The position numbers and the translations under genes were made by a program. The notes under the pieces are model-generated. The model saw only the letters and a list, made by a program, of their open reading frames with translations, made no database searches and had not been told where the DNA came from. Positions 2,789-55,149 of a stretch of DNA of 64,000 bases are shown in pieces (within the stretch, counting starts at the first letter, position 1; every line of letters begins with the position of its first letter). The stretch spans positions 268 to 64,267 of the forward strand of contig CBFDSV010000010.1 in NCBI GenBank assembly GCA_965612735.1. The letters run 5' to 3'. This DNA comes from an uncultured bacterium (GTDB lineage Bacteria; Hydrothermota; UBA3072; B12-G15).

Positions 2789-4449
2789 TACCCCTCCCTC
2801 TGAATTTTGAGTTTTTCCCTTAAAAGGTCATCCTGTATCTTCAGAAGAGTAGTTACGACCTCTCCCCTTTTTTCAAGTTCTTTTATCTTCCTGGCTGTTT
2901 CTTCCAGTTTTTCCTGTATTCTCTGCAGTTTCAACCGCCTCATTACATCTCCAACAGGGTCAACCCCATTTATGAGCATCTTGTAAACCTCATCCCTGTA
3001 TGGCTGGGGAAGACTGGAAACCACATCCTCACTATCCATCCTTTCATCCCTGGCTTTTTTTATGAACTCAGAAACAACACCCAGTTTAAAGTTAAATCCA
3101 TCAAGGGCGGAAAGGTCTTCATCACTGTACCCATTTAGAAGCATGGATGCCATGAGTGCAAGTTCCAGTTTTACATCAGGGGATAATTTCACAATCTCTT
3201 TTCTTTCAACCCCACCTTTTCTTCTAACCATCAGAAGTTCTTCCTTTATCATGAGTTCCCTGGAGATTTTTTCCCTATAAATCTCCTGCTTCACACCATC
3301 CCTTATCCTTGAAAGAATCTCCCTGAAGTCATTAACAACCTTTGTCAGGTGGGAAGGATTTTTAAGGTCGTACTTTTGAGAATAATCCTCAAGGAGAACA
3401 TCAATAAACCCCTTTGAATTTGAAAGGATTCTTTGAATCCCATCAGTCCCATCATTTCTCAAAATCTCATCAGGGTCTTTCCCTTCGCTGGAAGAACAAA
3501 GCATTATTTCAACATTTCTGTCAATAAGAAGTCCCATTGACCTCAATGATGCCTTTCTACCAGCCTCATCCATATCATAAAAAAGATATACTTTTCTGGC
3601 ATACCTGGATATTATCTGTGTTTGCTGTTCAGTTAATGAGGTTCCAAGGCTCGCAAGCACATTCTTGAATCCTGCCTGATACATACTCAGGTAGTCAAAG
3701 TAACCCTCAACAAGGATTACGCTCTTTTCCTCAAGTATTTCCTTTCTTGAATGAAAGACAGAGTATAAAGAACTCCTCTTGGAATACACAGGTGATTCAG
3801 GTGAATTCATGTATTTTGGCATTCCTTCTCCAAGTATTCTTCCACCAAATCCAGCAACCCTTCCTCCTGGTGAATAGATGGGAAACATCAATCTATTCCT
3901 GAACCTATCATACATTCTTCCCTGACCACGCACCACAAGCCCAACCTTCAGAAGCACATCTATGCCAAACTTTGCACCAAGTCTGGAAAGTATAATATCA
4001 GAATTTGGCGCATAGCCCAGTTGAAATTCTTCAATGGTCTCCTCAGTTATGCCCCTTTGTTTAAGATAATTGAGTGCAGTCTGGCTTTGTGGAAGCAAAG
4101 AATGGTATATCTTTGCAGCCTCCTCATTCACCTGATAAAACTTGTCCTGGGCATCCCCTGTTAATTTTACACTTATACCAACCATGTCCCCCAGATACTT
4201 CAGGGCATCAATAAAACTCATCTTTTCATATTCCTGAACAAACTTTATGACATCACCGCTTGCTCCACACCCAAAGCAGTGATAAACACCCAGTTCTGGA
4301 TTTACATAAAATGAGGGGTTTTTATCGTTATGAAAGGGGCAGAGACCTTTGTAATTCTTTCCGACCTTCTTAAGGGATACCCTTGAACCTATAACCTCTA
4401 CTATATCAACATGTTCTTTTATTTTATCCACCACATCCTTTAGTGGCAT
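2788..4449 (-). CDS. dnaG: DNA primase DnaG
   Basis: CHC2 zinc finger [11 protein letters not shown]...[10 protein letters not shown] plus TOPRIM region. Sits immediately upstream of rpoD, the conserved dnaG-rpoD order. Its stop overlaps the rpoD start. Confidence 0.9.
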
Positions 4450-4485: not shown

Positions 4486-5130
4486 CTATTTAAACACTTC
4501 ACCAGCCTCCTTGTACCACAACAGGAGGTCAAGATGGGACGATGGAATCCCCAGTTCTTCTGCGGTTTTCAGGAATAGTTTTTCTAATTCCATATATATT
4601 TTTCTTGAAATTGATTTGGGAACATCCTTAATTTTACCAAGAAATTTTAAATTTTTCAAAATATGTCTGTCAAGTATTGCAAGATTCTCTCCAAAACCAA
4701 TATTTCTTAAAAAATGGCTTGCCTCCTTGTATCCCATTCCCTTCACATCTTTAACAAGGAATTCCCTTGCCTCTTCAGGTGATTTAAATCCTGAAATTAT
4801 GGGTTTAACCCTTGGCATGCCTGCCTCCAGAAAGATTGCCCTTGAATTGATAATGTACTCTGCCTTTTTATTCTTAAACCTCACCCCTTCAAGGCAATCA
4901 ACTATCTTCCTGTAATCCCCATCCAGCAAAAGACTCTTTTGTTCCATTCTCTCAACAGCAGCCCAGCATATCTTTGCCTTTGACTGTGGTGTGAGAAGGC
5001 AGAATATAAACTCCTTGAACATGGCACAATCATCCCCTTTTTCCCATATTCCCCTGAATTCCATCAACCTTTTTTCAATCAAGGGTCTTACTTCCCTGTA
5101 TAATTCTTTTATTTCATGTTTGACGTCCAT
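4486..5130 (-). CDS. ogg: 8-oxoguanine DNA glycosylase/AP lyase, Ogg2 (archaeal/Thermotoga) type
   Basis: 214 aa with the HhH-GPD signature GMGYKEASHFLRNIGFGENLAILDRHI, characteristic of small Ogg2-family N-glycosylase/DNA lyases. Confidence 0.75.
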   Translation of the reverse strand: MDVKHEIKELYREVRPLIEKRLMEFRGIWEKGDDCAMFKEFIFCLLTPQSKAKICWAAVERMEQKSLLLDGDYRKIVDCLEGVRFKNKKAEYIINSRAIFLEAGMPRVKPIISGFKSPEEAREFLVKDVKGMGYKEASHFLRNIGFGENLAILDRHILKNLKFLGKIKDVPKSISRKIYMELEKLFLKTAEELGIPSSHLDLLLWYKEAGEVFK

Positions 5131-5153
5131 AAAGTTTATTGTATAATATAATC

Positions 5154-5603
5154 ATGAAATGTCCATACTGTGGTGATGACAATGACAGGGTGATTGACAC
5201 AAGGCTTGTAAAGGACGGTGAGGCAATAAGGAGAAGGAGGGAATGCCTCTCCTGTGGCAGGAGATTCACCACATATGAATATATTGAAAAAACCCCATTA
5301 CTCGTGATAAAGAAGGACGGAAGACGAGAACCCTTTGAAAGGGATAAGATTCTCCAGGGTATCCTGACAGCATGCCATAAGCGACCCATTCCAAGGGAAA
5401 AAATAGAAAACCTTGTTGATGAAGTTGTATCCGTTGTATCAGACCTTGGTACAAATGAGGTGGAGTCAAGGATAATTGGTGAGGAGATAATGAAAAGGCT
5501 GAAGAAACTTGACGATATATCCTATGTGAGATTTGCCTCTGTTTACAGGGAATTCCGTGATAAAAAAGAATTCATGAAGGAACTGAAGAATCTAAAGGGT
5601 TGA
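5154..5603 (+). CDS. nrdR: Transcriptional repressor NrdR
   Basis: MKCPYCG...RRRECLSCGRRFTTYE zinc ribbon plus ATP-cone. The track start at 5139 is probably an N-terminal over-extension. A TATAAT lies just upstream. Confidence 0.85.
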   Translation: MKCPYCGDDNDRVIDTRLVKDGEAIRRRRECLSCGRRFTTYEYIEKTPLLVIKKDGRREPFERDKILQGILTACHKRPIPREKIENLVDEVVSVVSDLGTNEVESRIIGEEIMKRLKKLDDISYVRFASVYREFRDKKEFMKELKNLKG

Positions 5604-7237
5604 ATACACTTTTTTCTCTTAGATTCAAGAGGATAAAGGGATTTATAAAGAAGGAAATCAGGGGGAGACTCCTAATTTATTTTATTGTTATCTTCATATT
5701 CCTTTCTGGCACATACTGGGTCTTTTTAAGGGTCTTTTCATTCTTAAACAATATTGAGGAGATCGGTGAAATAATTGCAGGAAAAATCATTTCCTATTCC
5801 TTCTTTGTATTCTTCTTCATGCTCCTGATTAGCAATGGGATAACAGCCCTTTCAACATTCTACAGGTCAAAAGAGGTAGAATTCCTCATGGCACTTCCTG
5901 TTCCTCCTGCTAACATTTTCATTTCAAAGATATTTGAGACCTTCTTCTTCAGTTCATGGGCAACACTGATAGGCGCTGTTCCCATTGTGCTTGCATACTT
6001 TATAGCATATGGCTCTCCATGGGGAATAGTTTACACAATCCCATCCTTCATGGGATTCATTGCAATCCCTTCATTCCTTGGAATCATTGTATTGATGGTA
6101 TTGAAAAGAATAAATCCCAACCTGAGTGTAAAGCAACTGGGTATAACCCTTGGCATTATATCAGGCATCATAATATACCTTTACATATTGACAAATCCAT
6201 ATTCCTTTAATATCCCCCAGACAACAAACCTGTACACGGTGAACAGATTTCTTGATAGATTAAGGTTCTCAAACCCTTATTTCCCCAACGAGTGGCTCTT
6301 CAATGTTGTCAGGAGTATAGTTGACGAAAGGATGTTCCAATTTTTTAGATACACAGGTTCACTCCTCCTTGTCTCTTTCTCCCTGTTCCTGATTCTGTAT
6401 TTCCTTGGTGTAAACTGGTACAGGGAGACATGGTTAACAACAGAGCACTCAAAGAAAATCCCCCATATAAGGTTAAGGTTCTTCCTTAATAGACCATCCC
6501 AACTGGTTAACCTTTTATCAAAGGACTGGAGGATATTCATACGCTCACCAAACCAGTGGGTTCAATTTCTTATAATATTTTTACTCCTCCTCTTTTATGT
6601 AATATCATTGAGGAGAACACCTATATATGTGAAGGAGGTCTTCTGGCTCACCATAACAGCCCTCATAAACACAGGTTTTGTTGCATATATAAGTGCAACC
6701 CTCTCATTGCGATTCATTTTCCCTGCAATCAGCCTTGAAGGTGATTACTGGTGGATTCTGAGGTCAGCACCTGTGAAACCGAGAAATATATATATATCAA
6801 AGATGATTTTTTACATTGCCCTGACCACGGTTATCTCCATATATGTGATTTACACCAGCAACATCAGGCTTACAGGTTCATTCATAATAACCCTTGTAAC
6901 AGTCATTATTGGAACAATGCTCACAATCACCTCTGTAATTATTGCAACCACAATGGGTACAATCTTTGTTGACTTCAATGAACACAATCCAGCAAAAATT
7001 GCCTCTGGAATGGGAGGTCTTTTAACTGCTGTACTATCACTTGGTTTTATAGGGCTTTCCCTTATCATCTTCCTCTCACCCTTTTCACACTACCTTGGTT
7101 TACTTCTGAAGGGTATATCTGTGAATCCATGGCCTATTATGAGAAACAGGCTTATCCTTTTCATTGTAATCTCCACCCTTCTTGATACATGGCTTGTAAA
7201 AATAGGGGTATCAAGGATTGGAAGGATTGAAGGCTGA
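5600..7237 (+). CDS. Polytopic integral membrane protein, function unknown
   Basis: 545 aa, more than 12 hydrophobic segments, no recognisable catalytic motif. Start overlaps the nrdR stop by 4 nt (translational coupling). Confidence 0.5.
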   Translation: MNTLFSLRFKRIKGFIKKEIRGRLLIYFIVIFIFLSGTYWVFLRVFSFLNNIEEIGEIIAGKIISYSFFVFFFMLLISNGITALSTFYRSKEVEFLMALPVPPANIFISKIFETFFFSSWATLIGAVPIVLAYFIAYGSPWGIVYTIPSFMGFIAIPSFLGIIVLMVLKRINPNLSVKQLGITLGIISGIIIYLYILTNPYSFNIPQTTNLYTVNRFLDRLRFSNPYFPNEWLFNVVRSIVDERMFQFFRYTGSLLLVSFSLFLILYFLGVNWYRETWLTTEHSKKIPHIRLRFFLNRPSQLVNLLSKDWRIFIRSPNQWVQFLIIFLLLLFYVISLRRTPIYVKEVFWLTITALINTGFVAYISATLSLRFIFPAISLEGDYWWILRSAPVKPRNIYISKMIFYIALTTVISIYVIYTSNIRLTGSFIITLVTVIIGTMLTITSVIIATTMGTIFVDFNEHNPAKIASGMGGLLTAVLSLGFIGLSLIIFLSPFSHYLGLLLKGISVNPWPIMRNRLILFIVISTLLDTWLVKIGVSRIGRIEG

Positions 7238-15802: not shown

Positions 15803-15855
15803 GTATACCCGTATTTTCCCTGAAAAATAAATTGTGTCAACCCCCTACCTGGGTA

Positions 15856-15878
15856 CCGAGCGTTCACAAGTTCACAAC
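15856..15878. repeat. Left inverted repeat ccgagcgttcacaagttcacaac (contains tandem gttcacaa x2)
   Basis: Its reverse complement gttgtgaacttgtgaacgctcgg occurs exactly at 16873-16895. Confidence 0.75.
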
Positions 15879-15908
15879 TTGCAATTAACCAATTTTTCTG
15901 TTATACTC
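15879..15908 (+). promoter_or_regulatory. Candidate promoter (TTGCAA-18-TATACT) abutting the left IR, 6 nt before the Y1 gene ATG
   Basis: Sequence ttgcaattaaccaatttttctgttatact then ctatttATG. A near-leaderless arrangement is implied. Confidence 0.25.
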
Positions 15909-15913
15909 TATTT

Positions 15914-16879
15914 ATGGGTAAAGGCCCCCGTGTTGTTTATCCTGGTGCATATCTGCATGTAATGAATCATTCAACTCAATCGCTTCCTCTTTTTAAAACA
16001 AAGAGGGAATATCTTATATTCCTTGACTTACTGGAGAGAAAAACCAATACATACAGTATAGATTTATTTGCCTATTGCCTTATGGGGAATCACTATCATC
16101 TCTTTTTTCATACCCCTACAGGTGAAGTCTCGCTTTTTATTGGGTCTTTACAATCCGCCTTTTCTCAAAAAATAAACAGAATAAGAGGGAAAGCAGGCCC
16201 CCTTTTCCAGAAGGGTTTCACCTCAATTATTGTGGACAAAAATTCTTATTTACTTGAACTTACGCGGTATATCCACTTAAACCCTGTGAGGGCAGGACTT
16301 TCAAAAAATCCAGAGGAATATCCATGGAGCAGTATTCATGCCTACATCAATCCTTCAAAGTACAAATGGATTAATGTTGAGACAGTACTTGACTATTTTG
16401 ATGGAAGTGTTAAATCGTATCTTGAATTTCTTCATGAACCACTTGAAGTTGAAGAAAAAATCAAGCCTTTGGGCTTCAATGGTGCAAAATTTTATGGGAA
16501 TAAATCCTTTGCCAGAAGGGCTTTCGGAAAATATGAAAGAAGAAAAACTACACAGGAAGAGAGAAAATATCAGAAAATCATAAGAGGCAACATTCCCTAT
16601 TCAAAGGTTATTGATACTGTTTTAAGTGAATTTGATAAAAAGGAATTAAGCCAGATAAATAGCAGAAGTTTTGAATCTACCCTTATAAAAAAGTTATTGG
16701 CCTATTTCCTTTTTAACTACACCTTGCTTACTACAAAGGAGATAGCAGACCTTTTAGGTTACAGGTTCAAAACAGGTGTATCTATGGCTGTTAAGAGGGT
16801 TGATACTGAACTTAAGAATGCGGGAGAAATCGCTCAATTTGTAAATAAAATCAAGAGAAAATTAAAAAGTGAGTTGTGA
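15914..16879 (+). CDS. Y1 (IS200/IS605-like HUH) transposase-like protein fused to a C-terminal DnaA-domain-IV-like HTH
   Basis: HUH motif NHYHLFF and catalytic-Tyr region LTRYIHLNPVRAGL. C-terminal LLAYFLFNYTLLTTKEIADLLGYRFKTGVSMAVKRV resembles the DnaA C-terminal DNA-binding helix-turn-helix. 321 aa, about twice a canonical IS200 TnpA. Confidence 0.65.
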   Translation: MGKGPRVVYPGAYLHVMNHSTQSLPLFKTKREYLIFLDLLERKTNTYSIDLFAYCLMGNHYHLFFHTPTGEVSLFIGSLQSAFSQKINRIRGKAGPLFQKGFTSIIVDKNSYLLELTRYIHLNPVRAGLSKNPEEYPWSSIHAYINPSKYKWINVETVLDYFDGSVKSYLEFLHEPLEVEEKIKPLGFNGAKFYGNKSFARRAFGKYERRKTTQEERKYQKIIRGNIPYSKVIDTVLSEFDKKELSQINSRSFESTLIKKLLAYFLFNYTLLTTKEIADLLGYRFKTGVSMAVKRVDTELKNAGEIAQFVNKIKRKLKSEL

Positions 16880-18059
16880 ACTTGTGAACGCTCGGCACCT
16901 GCAAGTAGGTGTAGTGACACCTGCGTACTGGCCTGGATTCAAGTATGGTGGTCCTGTCCATTCTCTACATTTACTCCTTAAAGAATTGAAGAAGCAGGGG
17001 CTAAATATCCAGGTCTATACAACCACCCTATTTCAGAAGGATAACATGTATATGGAAAGAATAGTGGATGGAGTACCTGTAAAATATTTCCCCATCTCTC
17101 CATTATCCGGCTCCTATGGTTATTCGCCAGGGCTCAGAATCCACCTTAAAAATACCGTTCAGTTATTCAACCTTGTTATTATCTCTTCAACCTGGGAGTA
17201 CTCCACCTATACTGCTATGTCAGTATGTACAGGGAACAATGTACCATTTATCTTTATACCCAGAGGCATGCTTCAGAGAAGAACCTTTAGAAGCAAATTG
17301 TGGAAAAAGTATCCGTATTATAAAATTCTTATAGAAAAACCTTTGAATCAGGCACGGGCAATAGTATTTACAAGTGAGTTTGAAAGAGAAGATACATTAA
17401 AACATATTAAACTGAAATCCAAAACCCCTGTTATTCCAAATGGGTTAAACATTAATTCATTAATAAAAGAGGCATCTTCAAACATACACAAAAACTATGA
17501 TAAACTGGAGGATAAATTTCTTATCACATTTATAGGAAGGTTCGTCTGGACAAAAGGCCTGAATAACCTTATACTGGCTTTTGCAAAACTATCAAAGGAG
17601 TTCCCCCATGTTCATCTTGTCCTTGCTGGTGATGGTGAGGAGGGCTATAAGAGAAAAATGCAATGCTGGATAAAAAAGGAAAACATTGAAGACAGAGTAA
17701 CCTTTACAGGATTTTTAACAGGCTCTATGAAATTCTCCCTTTTAAAGGCTTCTGACATCTTTGTACTTCCTTCCTATTCTGAAAATTTTGGTATGGCTTT
17801 GGTTGAGGCAATGGCTGCGGGTGTGCCTGTTTTAACAACCAATAAGGTTGGCATTTATAAGGAGGTTGAAAGGGAAAGGGCTGGAATTGTTGTAACACCT
17901 GAACCTGAAAGTATCTATTATGGATTGAAAAAATTATTGAGTGAACCTGATTTGAGGAAAGCCTTCTCTCAAAGAGGCAGGTCTCTTGTTTTGAAATACT
18001 TTGATATAAAAATTGTTGCTACCAGATACATCAAACTCTTTGAAGAGATACTGTCTTAG
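16869..18059 (+). CDS. Glycosyltransferase family 4 (GT-B, group 1)
   Basis: N-terminal VGVVTPAYWPGFKYGGPV and C-terminal FGMALVEAMAAGVPVLTTNKVG motifs. The first ~15 codons are encoded by the right IR, so the true start is probably GTG 16884 or 16914. Confidence 0.75.
   Translation: MSCELVNARHLQVGVVTPAYWPGFKYGGPVHSLHLLLKELKKQGLNIQVYTTTLFQKDNMYMERIVDGVPVKYFPISPLSGSYGYSPGLRIHLKNTVQLFNLVIISSTWEYSTYTAMSVCTGNNVPFIFIPRGMLQRRTFRSKLWKKYPYYKILIEKPLNQARAIVFTSEFEREDTLKHIKLKSKTPVIPNGLNINSLIKEASSNIHKNYDKLEDKFLITFIGRFVWTKGLNNLILAFAKLSKEFPHVHLVLAGDGEEGYKRKMQCWIKKENIEDRVTFTGFLTGSMKFSLLKASDIFVLPSYSENFGMALVEAMAAGVPVLTTNKVGIYKEVERERAGIVVTPEPESIYYGLKKLLSEPDLRKAFSQRGRSLVLKYFDIKIVATRYIKLFEEILS
16873..16895. repeat. 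Right inverted repeat gttgtgaacttgtgaacgctcgg
   Basis: Exact reverse complement of 15856-15878. Overlaps the stop of the Y1 gene and the annotated 5' end of the glycosyltransferase ORF. Confidence 0.75.
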
Positions 18060-52776: not shown

Positions 52777-55149
52777 TTATGGTGAGATTACACCCTTAAC
52801 AGATGCAGAAGGCCTTGAATGATTTCCATTTTTCCCTATACACTGCACCCTGTACCAGTATTCTTTTCCCTTCACAACTGTCCTGTCCATGTATTTATTT
52901 ACCTTGAGGAGTGGACTTATCTGGATAAATCCCCTTGTGGGGTTTTCACTTCTGAACACAACAAAACCAAGATAATCATCTGAAAAACCTGGCTCCCATG
53001 TAATCTCAAGTATACACCCTTCAGCAGGGTTCACTTTAACATTGAATGGCTTGGGTGGTAGAGCAAAATCAAATGTATAGGTCTCAACTGGCACAGATGG
53101 TTCACCAATGTTTCCCAGATAATCAGCAGCCCTCACCCTGTAGTAATATGTGGTCTTTGGCTGGACTGTTGTATCAAGGAATGAGAAGATTGAATCCTCA
53201 GCCCAAATATTGGTTGCTGGTATATCCTCACAGTTGCACCCTTCAGGGAATATAAGGGAATCGCTCACCCTCACCCATGGTCCTGAAGGCCTCTCAGCCC
53301 TCTCAACAATAAATCCGAAAAGGTCCTGCACTGGTGGTGCAACCCATTCCACCTTTATTGCCCTGTTTCTTGCCTTGAGTGCTGAAATAACAGGTGGTGG
53401 AGGTGGGGTCTTCTCTCTGAGTTTCACACACACAGTCTTTGATGTATCACTTATGTTCTGACTCCTGTCAAATGCCTTCACAGAGTATCTATAACAAATG
53501 GGAGAGCCTTCAGGAACAGTATGGTCTTCATATGTGAATGTCCCTGTATCACTGATTGTGGCTATCAAACTGAGTGGATAAATCCTGTACTCCTTCTTTC
53601 TACACTCCCACTGCTTCTGTTCATTCCTCACACTCTCAACACACACACTATCACCACCACAGATACCCCTGTAAATCATATAACCTGCAAGGTCTTTTGG
53701 TGGATGGGCTGGTTTTTCCCATGTGAGTTTAATATACTTCTCGTATCCCTCTCCACGAAGATTCACTGGTGGAGGGGGTGGAGTTGTATCAGGAAGATAA
53801 CCACCAGCAGCAGCAGAAAGTGCGCTCCTATTCAATGCCATGTCTATTGTCCTCACCCTGTACCAGTAGGTCTTTTCACCTTCTGGTGACCGCAGAGATG
53901 GGTCAGTGTCCCTGAATGTTACCAGTGATGGTCCTGTATCAGGTGGCTGTGGCACGAGGGTTGCAACAATTGTGCTATCACCAAGAGAATCAGCCTTTGT
54001 GAACCTGTAAACCCTGTAACCCTTCACACCATTTATCTCCTTATTCCCCTTTATATCCTTGTTCAGCCTGTACCATCTCACAAGGAGTGCATCGGTCTGT
54101 TGAACTACTTCAACACCATACGGAACAGCAGGTGGTGTTTTATCAACAGGTTTTGCAGTCTTCCATGAACTCCATGTACCTGGCCTACCAAGTATATCGT
54201 ATGCCCTGACCCTGTAGTAATATTTCGTTCCATTGAAGGGGCCATCAATTGAATCTCCCTGAACCACATGTTTTACTGGATTACCGTTCTCATCCCATCT
54301 AACATAGTCAAGGAAACAGTAGGATTCTGGAATGGTATCACCATTTATTGTAACATTGCATTTCCCCATGGCAGTTGCCTCATTAATCCTTCTGGCAGTT
54401 CCTGTTGATTTTTTCCTCTGTATCTCAAAACCTGTTGCGTTGTCCATCTCATCCCACAGGAGTTGAACCTGATTATCACCTGGAATTGCCCTCAGGTTCG
54501 GTGGTGCAGGGAGTTTTGTTGCCTTTCCTGCAACCACCCTTACATCTGTGGCCACGACAAGCCCTTCATGCCCCTTCCTGTCAACAGCAACAATCTTATA
54601 CCAGTATGTCTTTCCATAAGTGAGATTTTCGTCCATGTATCCAAACCCCATGGCAAGTGCAATTTTGTAGTAAGCCTTTGCAAGGAACTTGACCTTTTCA
54701 AAGACCTCACCTGTATCTGGAATCACGGTCAAACTGCACGGGTCAAAGGAAACATAACCACCTGGTAGCACTTTCCTCAATCTGAATCCTCCGCCGGGTG
54801 GAAATCCTGTACCCGGTTTTCTACGTGTCTTTTCAGGCTTATAGGCAAGTGCCTTTGATATTGCGTTCCACTCCTCACTTCCTACAGGAATAATTGCCTT
54901 GAGTTTATCACAGTTTGATACCCTCCTTACCGGTGCAGAATTTATTGGTGTTGAAGGATAGGATGCAGAGAGATTGTCTTTTCTGTAAATATTGTAACCA
55001 TATGTTCCGCTCATTGGAGTCCATATCAGGAGAACAAAACTGTTTCTACCATCCTTACCACCGGTTGCATAGGCAGATGGGTAAAGGTTTAAACCCAGCA
55101 GAATTAGAAAAAGCAGTGATTTCTTAATCATATTTAAGCCTCCTTTCAT
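52777..55149 (-). CDS. Secreted multi-FN3-domain protein
   Basis: Signal peptide; about six fibronectin-III-like modules, each ending in a (T/K)YWY(R/K)V.A.D…GN.S motif, separated by TPPPPP-type linkers. The ATG overlaps the stop of the upstream giant gene. Confidence 0.55.
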   Translation of the reverse strand: MKGGLNMIKKSLLFLILLGLNLYPSAYATGGKDGRNSFVLLIWTPMSGTYGYNIYRKDNLSASYPSTPINSAPVRRVSNCDKLKAIIPVGSEEWNAISKALAYKPEKTRRKPGTGFPPGGGFRLRKVLPGGYVSFDPCSLTVIPDTGEVFEKVKFLAKAYYKIALAMGFGYMDENLTYGKTYWYKIVAVDRKGHEGLVVATDVRVVAGKATKLPAPPNLRAIPGDNQVQLLWDEMDNATGFEIQRKKSTGTARRINEATAMGKCNVTINGDTIPESYCFLDYVRWDENGNPVKHVVQGDSIDGPFNGTKYYYRVRAYDILGRPGTWSSWKTAKPVDKTPPAVPYGVEVVQQTDALLVRWYRLNKDIKGNKEINGVKGYRVYRFTKADSLGDSTIVATLVPQPPDTGPSLVTFRDTDPSLRSPEGEKTYWYRVRTIDMALNRSALSAAAGGYLPDTTPPPPPVNLRGEGYEKYIKLTWEKPAHPPKDLAGYMIYRGICGGDSVCVESVRNEQKQWECRKKEYRIYPLSLIATISDTGTFTYEDHTVPEGSPICYRYSVKAFDRSQNISDTSKTVCVKLREKTPPPPPVISALKARNRAIKVEWVAPPVQDLFGFIVERAERPSGPWVRVSDSLIFPEGCNCEDIPATNIWAEDSIFSFLDTTVQPKTTYYYRVRAADYLGNIGEPSVPVETYTFDFALPPKPFNVKVNPAEGCILEITWEPGFSDDYLGFVVFRSENPTRGFIQISPLLKVNKYMDRTVVKGKEYWYRVQCIGKNGNHSRPSASVKGVISP

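Follow-up and report, generated by a model that had tools for sequence, protein, structure and literature searches.

What does a single gene for a Y1 nuclease do between two long and nearly perfect inverted repeats: does it move itself, does it control the promoters around it, or does it serve other elements that carry the same ends? The locus that raises this question occupies positions 15852 to 16899 of a 64,000-nt stretch of contig CBFDSV010000010.1 (the whole stretch being called the window hereafter), from a candidate division WOR-3 bacterium (metagenome-assembled genome (MAG) proteins HDI82843.1 and RKZ22614.1). RAYT-like genes flanked by terminal inverted repeats (TIRs) have been named TIRtrons, and their products TIRYTs (Di Nocera, De Gregorio and Rocco 2013, BMC Genomics 14:522, PMC3733652). 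We find that the window's unit is a TIRtron encoding a TIRYT. Its gene, single-copy and fixed in the chromosome, probably acts in trans on TIR-bounded elements, in the manner of RAYTs and REPINs.

A TIR-flanked gene fixed at one locus

The unit is bounded by a 28-nt inverted repeat (15852-15879 / 16872-16899) that is 96% complementary, with one mismatch and 23 nt of perfect pairing. The arms are 992 nt apart, giving a total size of 1048 bp, and the only open reading frame (ORF) between them (15914-16879, plus strand) encodes 321 aa. Repeat search and ORF list thus agree with the preliminary description of this locus, which had been made from the sequence alone and reported a 28-bp repeat (23 perfect, one mismatch) around a single 321-aa gene, a unit of ~1.05 kb and a right repeat lying over the stop codon (TGA, 16877-16879). 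The right TIR also overlaps the called GTG start (16884) of the downstream GT4 glycosyltransferase gene.

The perfect 23-mer CCGAGCGTTCACAAGTTCACAAC has two exact copies in the window, one on each strand, and does not occur in 100 dinucleotide-preserving shuffles of the window; chance is ruled out as the source of the inverted repeat. An ordinary resident gene beside a chance palindrome, which the preliminary description had set against its own proposal, would fit with the presence of just two repeat copies in 64 kb. We nevertheless regard it as refuted: besides the empty shuffles, the repeat is invariant across strains whose surroundings vary, homologous TIRs flank 34 of 39 distant homologues, and the further copies of the repeat that the preliminary description had thought possible do exist, the TIR being present at many other loci of the same organism.

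The arrangement had been presented as an oddity, but it is already published (PMC3733652; PMC6006769). Quentin et al. (2018, BMC Genomics 19:475, PMC6006769) placed TIRYTs in subclass 2.1 of the TnpA_REP-like proteins, with a subgroup 2.1.2 that has a Bac_DnaA_C-like C-terminus. The unit described here encodes a TIRYT of subclass 2.1.2, and is thus a divergent member, in a new phylum, of a described but uncharacterised class. Our literature search found no later papers on TIRYTs or on Bac_DnaA_C-transposase fusions, and Bertels 2017 did not address the TIRs or the DnaA domain. As described in the relevant passages of the 2013 paper, TIRYTs share with the window's protein a RAYT-like Y1 sequence longer than RAYTs, TIRs in place of repetitive extragenic palindromes (REPs), a right TIR at or over the 3' end of the gene and, in some genomes, a TIR that is also dispersed; WOR-3 is not among the species that these passages name.

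Like other members of subclass 2.1.2, which combine a Y1 core, a conserved linker and a DnaA-domain-IV-like helix-turn-helix (HTH), the window's protein consists of a Y1 HUH nuclease domain of RAYT-like type, a helical linker and an HTH of the DnaA-domain-IV type. Pfam Y1_Tnp matches aa 13-121 (E 5e-9), the catalytic-type Tyr119 lies within RYIHLNPVRAGL, and all of 38 aligned homologues share residues H60, H62, R118, Y119, H121, N123 and P124. In an AlphaFold2 model of the 321-aa protein (mean pLDDT 84), the closest fold in the PDB is that of E. coli TnpA_REP (4er8; Foldseek E 7.9e-7), followed by the TnpA proteins of IS608 and ISDra2. The NCBIfam model NF047646 (REP_Tyr_transpos) gives 73.9 bits, just under its cut-off of 80. 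The C-terminus, for which a match to Pfam Bac_DnaA_C had been expected, stays below threshold as a single sequence (E 0.059, 13.8 bits vs a cut-off of 31.5), but the profile of the 38 homologues reaches the DnaA domain IV entries 8btg, 1l8q, 1j1v and 3pvp at E 4e-12 to 3e-9; the same profile matches 4er8 at 6.6e-4. In addition, the C-terminal domain of the model superposes on DNA-bound DnaA domain IV (3pvp, 1j1v) with a target-normalised template modelling (TM) score of 0.85 and a root-mean-square deviation of about 2 Å. This domain is homologous to DnaA domain IV, and Pfam, family profile and superposition together show that the locus had been described correctly as joining an HUH/Tyr core to a DnaA-IV-type HTH. 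In a protein database search, we obtained 2472 relatives, about 317 aa long; many have precomputed PF01797 and PF08299 matches, and several are named RayT or 'transposase' by their source databases.

The exact protein is encoded on 13 contigs and the representative of its 97% cluster (P0001) on 7, the contigs coming from many samples. The gene has the same neighbours in every place shown, a saccharopine-dehydrogenase operon on one side and the GT4 gene on the other; in all, more than 20 contigs have it at this single locus. WOR-3 assemblies with the gene include GCA_053940145.1 and the DRQ23 and ENF18 MAGs. The ratio of nonsynonymous to synonymous divergence (dN/dS) between strains is 0.07-0.11, with dS up to 0.19, and both TIRs are unchanged across 7 strains in which the 14 nt outside the right arm are hypervariable. 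A fixed locus, such dN/dS values and invariant TIRs indicate a vertically inherited and selected gene, a signature unlike that of an active insertion sequence (IS). Together with the TnpA_REP fold, single-copy fixation and purifying selection bear out the earlier suggestion that the unit is closer to a RAYT-type or domesticated Y1 module than to a classical IS.

A natural allele of the locus without the Y1 gene is carried by contig L053 (1372-1490, corresponding to 15852-16911 of the window). At this locus, no contig is closer to the window than L053 (98-99% identity), which even has the window's private GT4 allele; strains more distant than L053 all carry the Y1 gene. Directly after its left TIR, the L053 allele has 90 bp made up of TTGAAC-17-TATAAT-6-ATG and 20 codons, which join the GT4 ORF at window position 16911, the GT4 gene thereby having its own promoter and 20 extra N-terminal codons. 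Homology of the 90-bp segment to the 5' region of the Y1 gene was considered but not accepted, the ~50% identity (by eye) consisting mostly of shared -35, -10 and ATG positions. L053 may reflect a polymorphism of long standing, in which presence and absence of the gene have been reshuffled by recombination; a one-ended integration targeted to the TIR, together with a deletion next to it, is possible too.

Short elements with the same ends

Searching JGI metagenome contigs for exact copies of the 19-mer GCGTTCACAAGTTCACAAC yielded 43 contigs, about 36 of which are genuine and carry the full 27-28-nt TIR. The remaining 7 (L020, L026, L028, L031, L036, L040 and L056) lack the GGTRCCGA prefix and have a GC content of 0.47-0.55 (the tetranucleotide correlation of L036 with the window is 0.31); chance matches of this sort are expected of a 19-mer. 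Only 2 complete 1048-bp units were recovered, both at the window's locus. Inverted TIR pairs 355-444 bp long are found on about 20 contigs, with two pairs on L048, and solitary hits lie mostly at contig ends, as would be expected of assemblies that break at repeats. There are 37 distinct flanks, and we conservatively estimate that at least 10 distinct loci are occupied.

These elements have three unrelated interiors: a main family whose members are 72-100% alike, a 444-bp type and a 408-bp element. One end of the short elements (the B end) resembles the right subterminal region of the Y1 unit for about 17 nt past the TIR, and the interiors are otherwise unrelated to the Y1 gene. We rejected a coding or RNA function for the interiors, as we found no conserved ORF (indels are not multiples of three), no match in Rfam and no conserved RNA fold in the one strand that was folded (RNAalifold -5.8 kcal/mol, one compensatory pair). 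Pairwise divergence averages 23% for the interiors, as compared to 0.6-1.2% for the TIRs and 2-3.6% for the nine TIR positions that lie outside the 19-mer forced by the search. The elements are intergenic; their neighbours include genes for a LysRS-type synthetase, a ComM-like ATPase, an ATP sulfurylase, a DnaJ/TPR protein and a HEPN/NTase pair. Target-site duplications, whose possible presence had been raised in the preliminary description, were not detected around 20 distinct short elements (anchored direct repeats of 0-3 nt, at chance level), and the target consensus over the 37 distinct flanks is limited to a weak C/A bias at -4/-3. HUH/Y1 elements, unlike DDE-type miniature inverted-repeat transposable elements (MITEs), are not expected to generate such duplications. 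Finally, we discarded the possibility that these ~330-bp segments bounded by inverted repeats are invertible promoters (invertons), because each flank is constantly linked to the same interior end and no inversion was observed.

Two lines of evidence place the Y1 gene and the short elements in one genome. The first is tetranucleotide composition: 17 of the 18 genuine TIR contigs of at least 6 kb correlate with the window at 0.92-0.98 (L044 at 0.81), as compared to 0.94-0.96 for the window's own 8-kb chunks and -0.08 to 0.63 for unrelated loci. The second is provided by MAGs, as the 90%-identity clusters of the proteins flanking the L048 short elements include the Y1 protein's MAG series (DRQ23_06325 and DRQ23_06245 alongside DRQ23_04710), and the accession series HDI8xxxx and MCD627xxxx are likewise shared between short-element neighbours and the Y1 protein.

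Some individual copies deserve description. In L048, two direct copies of a short element (3544-3917 and 6238-6606) bracket a gene for a 523-aa FlgD_ig/Por_Secre_tail protein (4526-6097), and the order is permuted in L037 (gene end, element, gene start), an arrangement that suggests a tandem array or recombination between elements. A second copy of the TIR's outer 9 nt, GGGTGCCGA, stands 4 nt beyond the element in L025 (about 915-937) and in L027 (about 2720-2740), where the sequence reads GGGTGCCGAccctGGGTGCCGAGCG; L014 and L015, which are orthologous to these loci, do not have the duplication. The main interiors also contain one internal box GTTYACARGTGT followed by GGGTGCC (alignment columns about 110-130; e.g. 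about 3680-3700 in L048), the box matching the junction of the tandem boxes of the TIR and GGGTGCC its outer edge.

Could the 1048-bp unit be an autonomous and currently mobile IS, moving or copying itself, with the short elements as its internal-deletion derivatives? Every full-length copy that we recovered lies at one locus, be it on the 13 and 7 contigs mentioned above or in the 2 complete units of the metagenome scan, and the low dN/dS over strains differing by a dS of 0.19 indicates long vertical inheritance. Short-element interiors, apart from the stretch beside the B end, are unrelated to the gene, and the family is rare on plasmids, relatives (annotated 'transposase') occurring in 19 of the 72,556 PLSDB records, with none covering 80% of the query. 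We thus hold such an IS to be unlikely, although several features speak for it, namely a TIR-bounded unit with a promoter in its left end, the presence/absence polymorphism seen in L053, a 51%-identical homologue that has homologous TIRs among different neighbours, and the likeness of the B end to the right subterminal region. The unit shares the HUH/Y1 fold and the lack of target-site duplication with IS200/IS605 elements (IS608 and ISDra2 TnpA), but it has perfect TIRs instead of subterminal hairpins, is single-copy at a fixed locus and encodes a protein twice as long. Similarly, the short elements resemble MITEs in being non-coding, in having TIRs identical to those of a transposase-encoding unit and in occupying several loci, and differ from classical DDE-type MITEs in the absence of target-site duplications and in interiors unrelated to the Y1 gene save for those ~17 nt beside one TIR.

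The proposed role of the gene as a trans-acting partner of short elements parallels the RAYT-REPIN systems (E. coli TnpA_REP, 4er8; Pseudomonas RAYTs). These provide the closest structural match of the catalytic domain, and in both cases a single-copy, vertically inherited gene has its repeat dispersed in the same genome, here at 10 or more other loci. The differences are that the window's repeats are not palindromic hairpins and have no GTAG tag, that the partner elements measure 355-444 bp vs about 100 bp for REP doublets, and that the TIRYT has an additional domain predicted to bind duplex DNA, its NCBIfam RAYT score being just under the cut-off. Some published TIRs form dispersed families of singles and dimers in certain genomes, according to the passages of PMC3733652 that treat them; the partner repeats of the window's lineage differ in having conserved non-coding interiors, of three unrelated types.

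Bipartite ends and their possible recognition

We examined 39 loci with relatives ~27-32% identical over most of the query, taken among the matches listed from species-representative genomes; their phyla include Nitrospirota, Desulfobacterota, Omnitrophota, Acidobacteriota and Gammaproteobacteria. At 34 of these loci, a flanking inverted repeat scores above every shuffle, typically with 20-80 nt between the left arm and the start codon and with the right arm located at, or overlapping, the stop codon. When the 34 TIRs are aligned at their outer edge, positions 1-12 read GGGGTCAGRTCT almost invariantly, and the sequence further in is variable. Perfect adjacent tandem repeats of 7-8 nt are present in 6 of the 34 TIRs vs 0.2-1.3% of shuffles. 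Many other TIRs read CTTCAnnCTTGACA, the second unit of which is the -35 hexamer about 30 nt upstream of the ATG; accordingly placed, TTGACA forms the inner end of the TIR in many homologues. The TIR is thus bipartite throughout the family: its outer 12 nt are conserved, and the part further in varies and often consists of tandem repeats. The protein has a comparable gradient, with a mean identity of 48% in the N-terminal domain and 22% in the C-terminal domain.

In the window, the internal tandem repeat previously claimed for each arm is indeed read in both, as two adjacent GTTCACAA units. The outer module GGTRCCGA is the most diverged of the 34 examined with respect to the family form GGGGTCAG, GGGGTCA[GA] or a near variant being found in nearly all of the other 32 loci. 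The nearest relative outside the species (51% identical; L012 and L013) has the same layout among different neighbouring genes, with two GTTTACAA units in both arms, i.e. a C to T change in all four tandem boxes relative to the window. Its outer module, GGTGTCAG, is one mismatch away from GGGGWSAS and intermediate between the family motif and GGTRCCGA, so that the latter may be read as a diverged form of the homologous outer module. GGGGWSAS itself was reported, in the parts of PMC3733652 dealing with it, for many TIRs and for most but not all published members; the distant homologues that we examined carry it as GGGGTCAG, and the window's TIR does not have it. Some distant TIRtrons have two copies of the outer module GGGGTCAGG on one side of the gene, at a spacing of 13-27 nt (L116 3910-3950, L113 3933-3960 and L103 3931-3958).

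The REP-like character that the preliminary description had lent to the repeats did not hold. DNA folding of the arms and ends gave insignificant z-scores (+0.2 to -1.3) for REP-like or IS200-like hairpins, and each arm consists of direct repeats in tandem, is not palindromic and has no GTAG-type tag; we dropped the palindromic reading on the basis of these z-scores. Likewise, a DnaA box (TTWTNCACA) is not convincing in GTTCACAA, as its best register, AAGTTCACA, fits 5 of the 8 specified positions, which by our own estimate is close to chance level for a 28-nt TIR read on both strands; we rejected it as a coincidence. The inner repeats of other family members (TTGACAT, GAAACTA, TAAAGAA, TTAATTA) are unrelated to the DnaA box. 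A two-mismatch copy of the tandem box, GTTTACAGGTTCACAA at 53997-54012 (minus strand), lies inside a 790-aa ORF (52777-55149) and was set aside as being at chance level.

Quentin et al. found no REP-like repeats near subclass 2.1.2 genes and, as GGGGWSAS does not resemble a DnaA box, thought it doubtful that the HTH would read the TIR (PMC6006769). Seen as bipartite, the TIR of the window's family differs from that picture, as its inner part is left as a candidate site for the HTH. That the HTH domain recognises the repeat, as the preliminary description had proposed, is a reasonable inference. The pairing of a conserved outer module with a conserved Y1 domain, and of variable boxes with a variable HTH, suggests a division of labour. 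In each TIR, the two tandem GTTCACAA boxes would be bound by the HTH in duplex form, which would bring the Y1 domain to the outer module (GGTRCCGAGCG in the window, GGGGTCAGRTCT in the family), where it would nick one strand and rejoin it. The protein would act in this way in trans on every TIR-bounded segment, spreading or maintaining the 355-444-bp non-coding elements, while its own gene would be immobile and inherited vertically, like a RAYT gene with its REPINs.

Binding to the TIR would also repress the gene itself. A promoter-like element with TTGCAA and TATACT hexamers was correctly placed at the inner edge of the left repeat in the preliminary description, but its spacer is 17 nt and not 18. 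The ATG lies 7 nt downstream of the -10 hexamer and there is no Shine-Dalgarno sequence, so that the transcript looks leaderless from its promoter geometry. Autorepression of this transcript would be expected, as the -35 hexamer directly adjoins the TIR both in the window and across the family.

The same position of the -35 hexamer would suit a fully domesticated DNA-binding regulator, with TIRs as operators of adjacent promoters, Y1 chemistry unused for mobility and short elements as relics. So would the solo TIR found in the same register before the GT4 promoter of the Y1-less allele, the strong purifying selection at a fixed locus, and the fact that housekeeping genes, LysRS among them, begin about 30 nt downstream of the right TIR of short elements. 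We nonetheless find this improbable, since the HUH motif and catalytic Tyr are invariant in 38 of 38 aligned homologues, since TIRs are nearly always inverted pairs with both members conserved although an operator has no need of pairing, and since identical ends on three unrelated interiors argue for end-directed DNA transactions.

Within the proposed action in trans, a more speculative mode of recognition can be conceived, although we find it rather doubtful. On single-stranded DNA (e.g. the lagging-strand template), the two TIRs might pair into a 28-bp panhandle, of which the HTH would read the boxes and the Y1 domain would cut the outer module at the foot of the stem. Such a panhandle would account at once for the association of a single-strand-specific HUH enzyme with TIRs and not hairpins, for the bipartite build of the TIR and for the ability of any interior, three unrelated ones in this case, to be mobilised. 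Hybrid recognition of this type would, if this tentative idea is right, be a mode undescribed for any transposase, and the WOR-3 system would represent a second and independent type of REPIN-like repeat population that is inherited vertically.

Several points weigh against a fixed TIRYT gene acting in trans on short elements. HTH binding, Y1 cleavage and action in trans are all inferred, and our literature search found no biochemistry of any TIRYT. Over the 34 loci, covariation of the inner TIR with the C-terminal domain is weak and, when compared with the N-terminal domain, not domain-specific (partial rho 0.08, p 0.06). There is no short element within the 64-kb window. Among the recovered contigs, no filled/empty site pair with both flanks orthologous was found, so recent movement stays undemonstrated, and segmental duplication may account for some of the copies in L048 and L037. 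The exact-match search itself partly forces the conservation of the central 19 nt, in one TIR per contig. Finally, neither the L053 allele nor the window's can be derived from the other by simple excision or insertion.

Layout of the locus and its significance

The features of the unit and its borders are given in Table 1. In sister strains (L001 and L005), the inverted repeat extends to 42 nt at 83%. On the other side of the left TIR, 12 nt outside it, a promoter-like TTGACA-16-GAAAAT (15813-15840, minus strand) precedes the divergent saccharopine-dehydrogenase operon, and the left TIR thus sits between two divergent promoters. The GT4 gene is an allelic mosaic: in L030, L049, L001 and L008, a segment corresponding to about 17325-17592 of the window is only about 50% identical, with flanks at 95-99%, and L053 has the same version of this segment as the window.

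Table 1. Positions of the TIRtron features and adjoining sequences in the window
Feature	Position	Strand	Remarks
Weak outer extension of the inverted repeat, CAACCCCCTACCTG	15838..15851	+	Partner is 16900-16913
Left TIR, GGTACCGAGCGTTCACAAGTTCACAACT	15852..15879	+	Repeat search; invariant in 7 strains; same 28-mer at short-element ends
Outer module of left TIR	15852-15863	+	Apparently diverged form of family motif GGGGTCAGRTCT; tandem 8-mers make up the inner part
Tandem direct repeat in left TIR, two GTTCACAA units	15862..15877	+	Putative binding sites of the HTH domain
Promoter-like TTGCAA-17-TATACT, TG before -10	15879..15907	+	First T of -35 is last base of TIR
TIRYT gene (321 aa): RAYT-like Y1 HUH nuclease fused to DnaA-domain-IV-like HTH	15914..16879	+	
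Y1 HUH nuclease domain, aa 1-140	15914..16333	+	HUH H60-Y61-H62 at 16091-16099; Tyr119 at 16268-16270
DnaA-domain-IV-like HTH domain, aa 228-318	16595..16867	+	Family profile and structure match
Right TIR (GGTGCCGAGCGTTCACAAGTTCACAACT on the minus strand)	16872..16899	-	Invariant in 7 strains
GT4 glycosyltransferase gene	16884..18059	+	Called start codon within right TIR
Strain-hypervariable 14 nt directly outside right TIR	16900..16913	+	Imperfect partner of 15838-15851

TIRYTs form a very large family (at least 2472 relatives) that has been described in two in-silico papers. Apart from a suggestion as to the target of the HTH, the unit reported here is an element of a catalogued kind and leaves current views unchanged. 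To these descriptions it adds a TIR that is bipartite across the family, a leaderless-like promoter geometry at the TIR in many members, and a REPIN-like set of partner elements in WOR-3. The locus also constitutes a compact natural test system, with one intact and selected gene, ends that are bipartite and perfectly conserved, a small number of short partner elements in the same genome and a natural allele lacking the gene. As for the question raised in 2018, namely what the DnaA-like domain targets, the candidate is not the conserved GGGGTCAG motif but the TIR's inner half, with its variable, tandem repeats.

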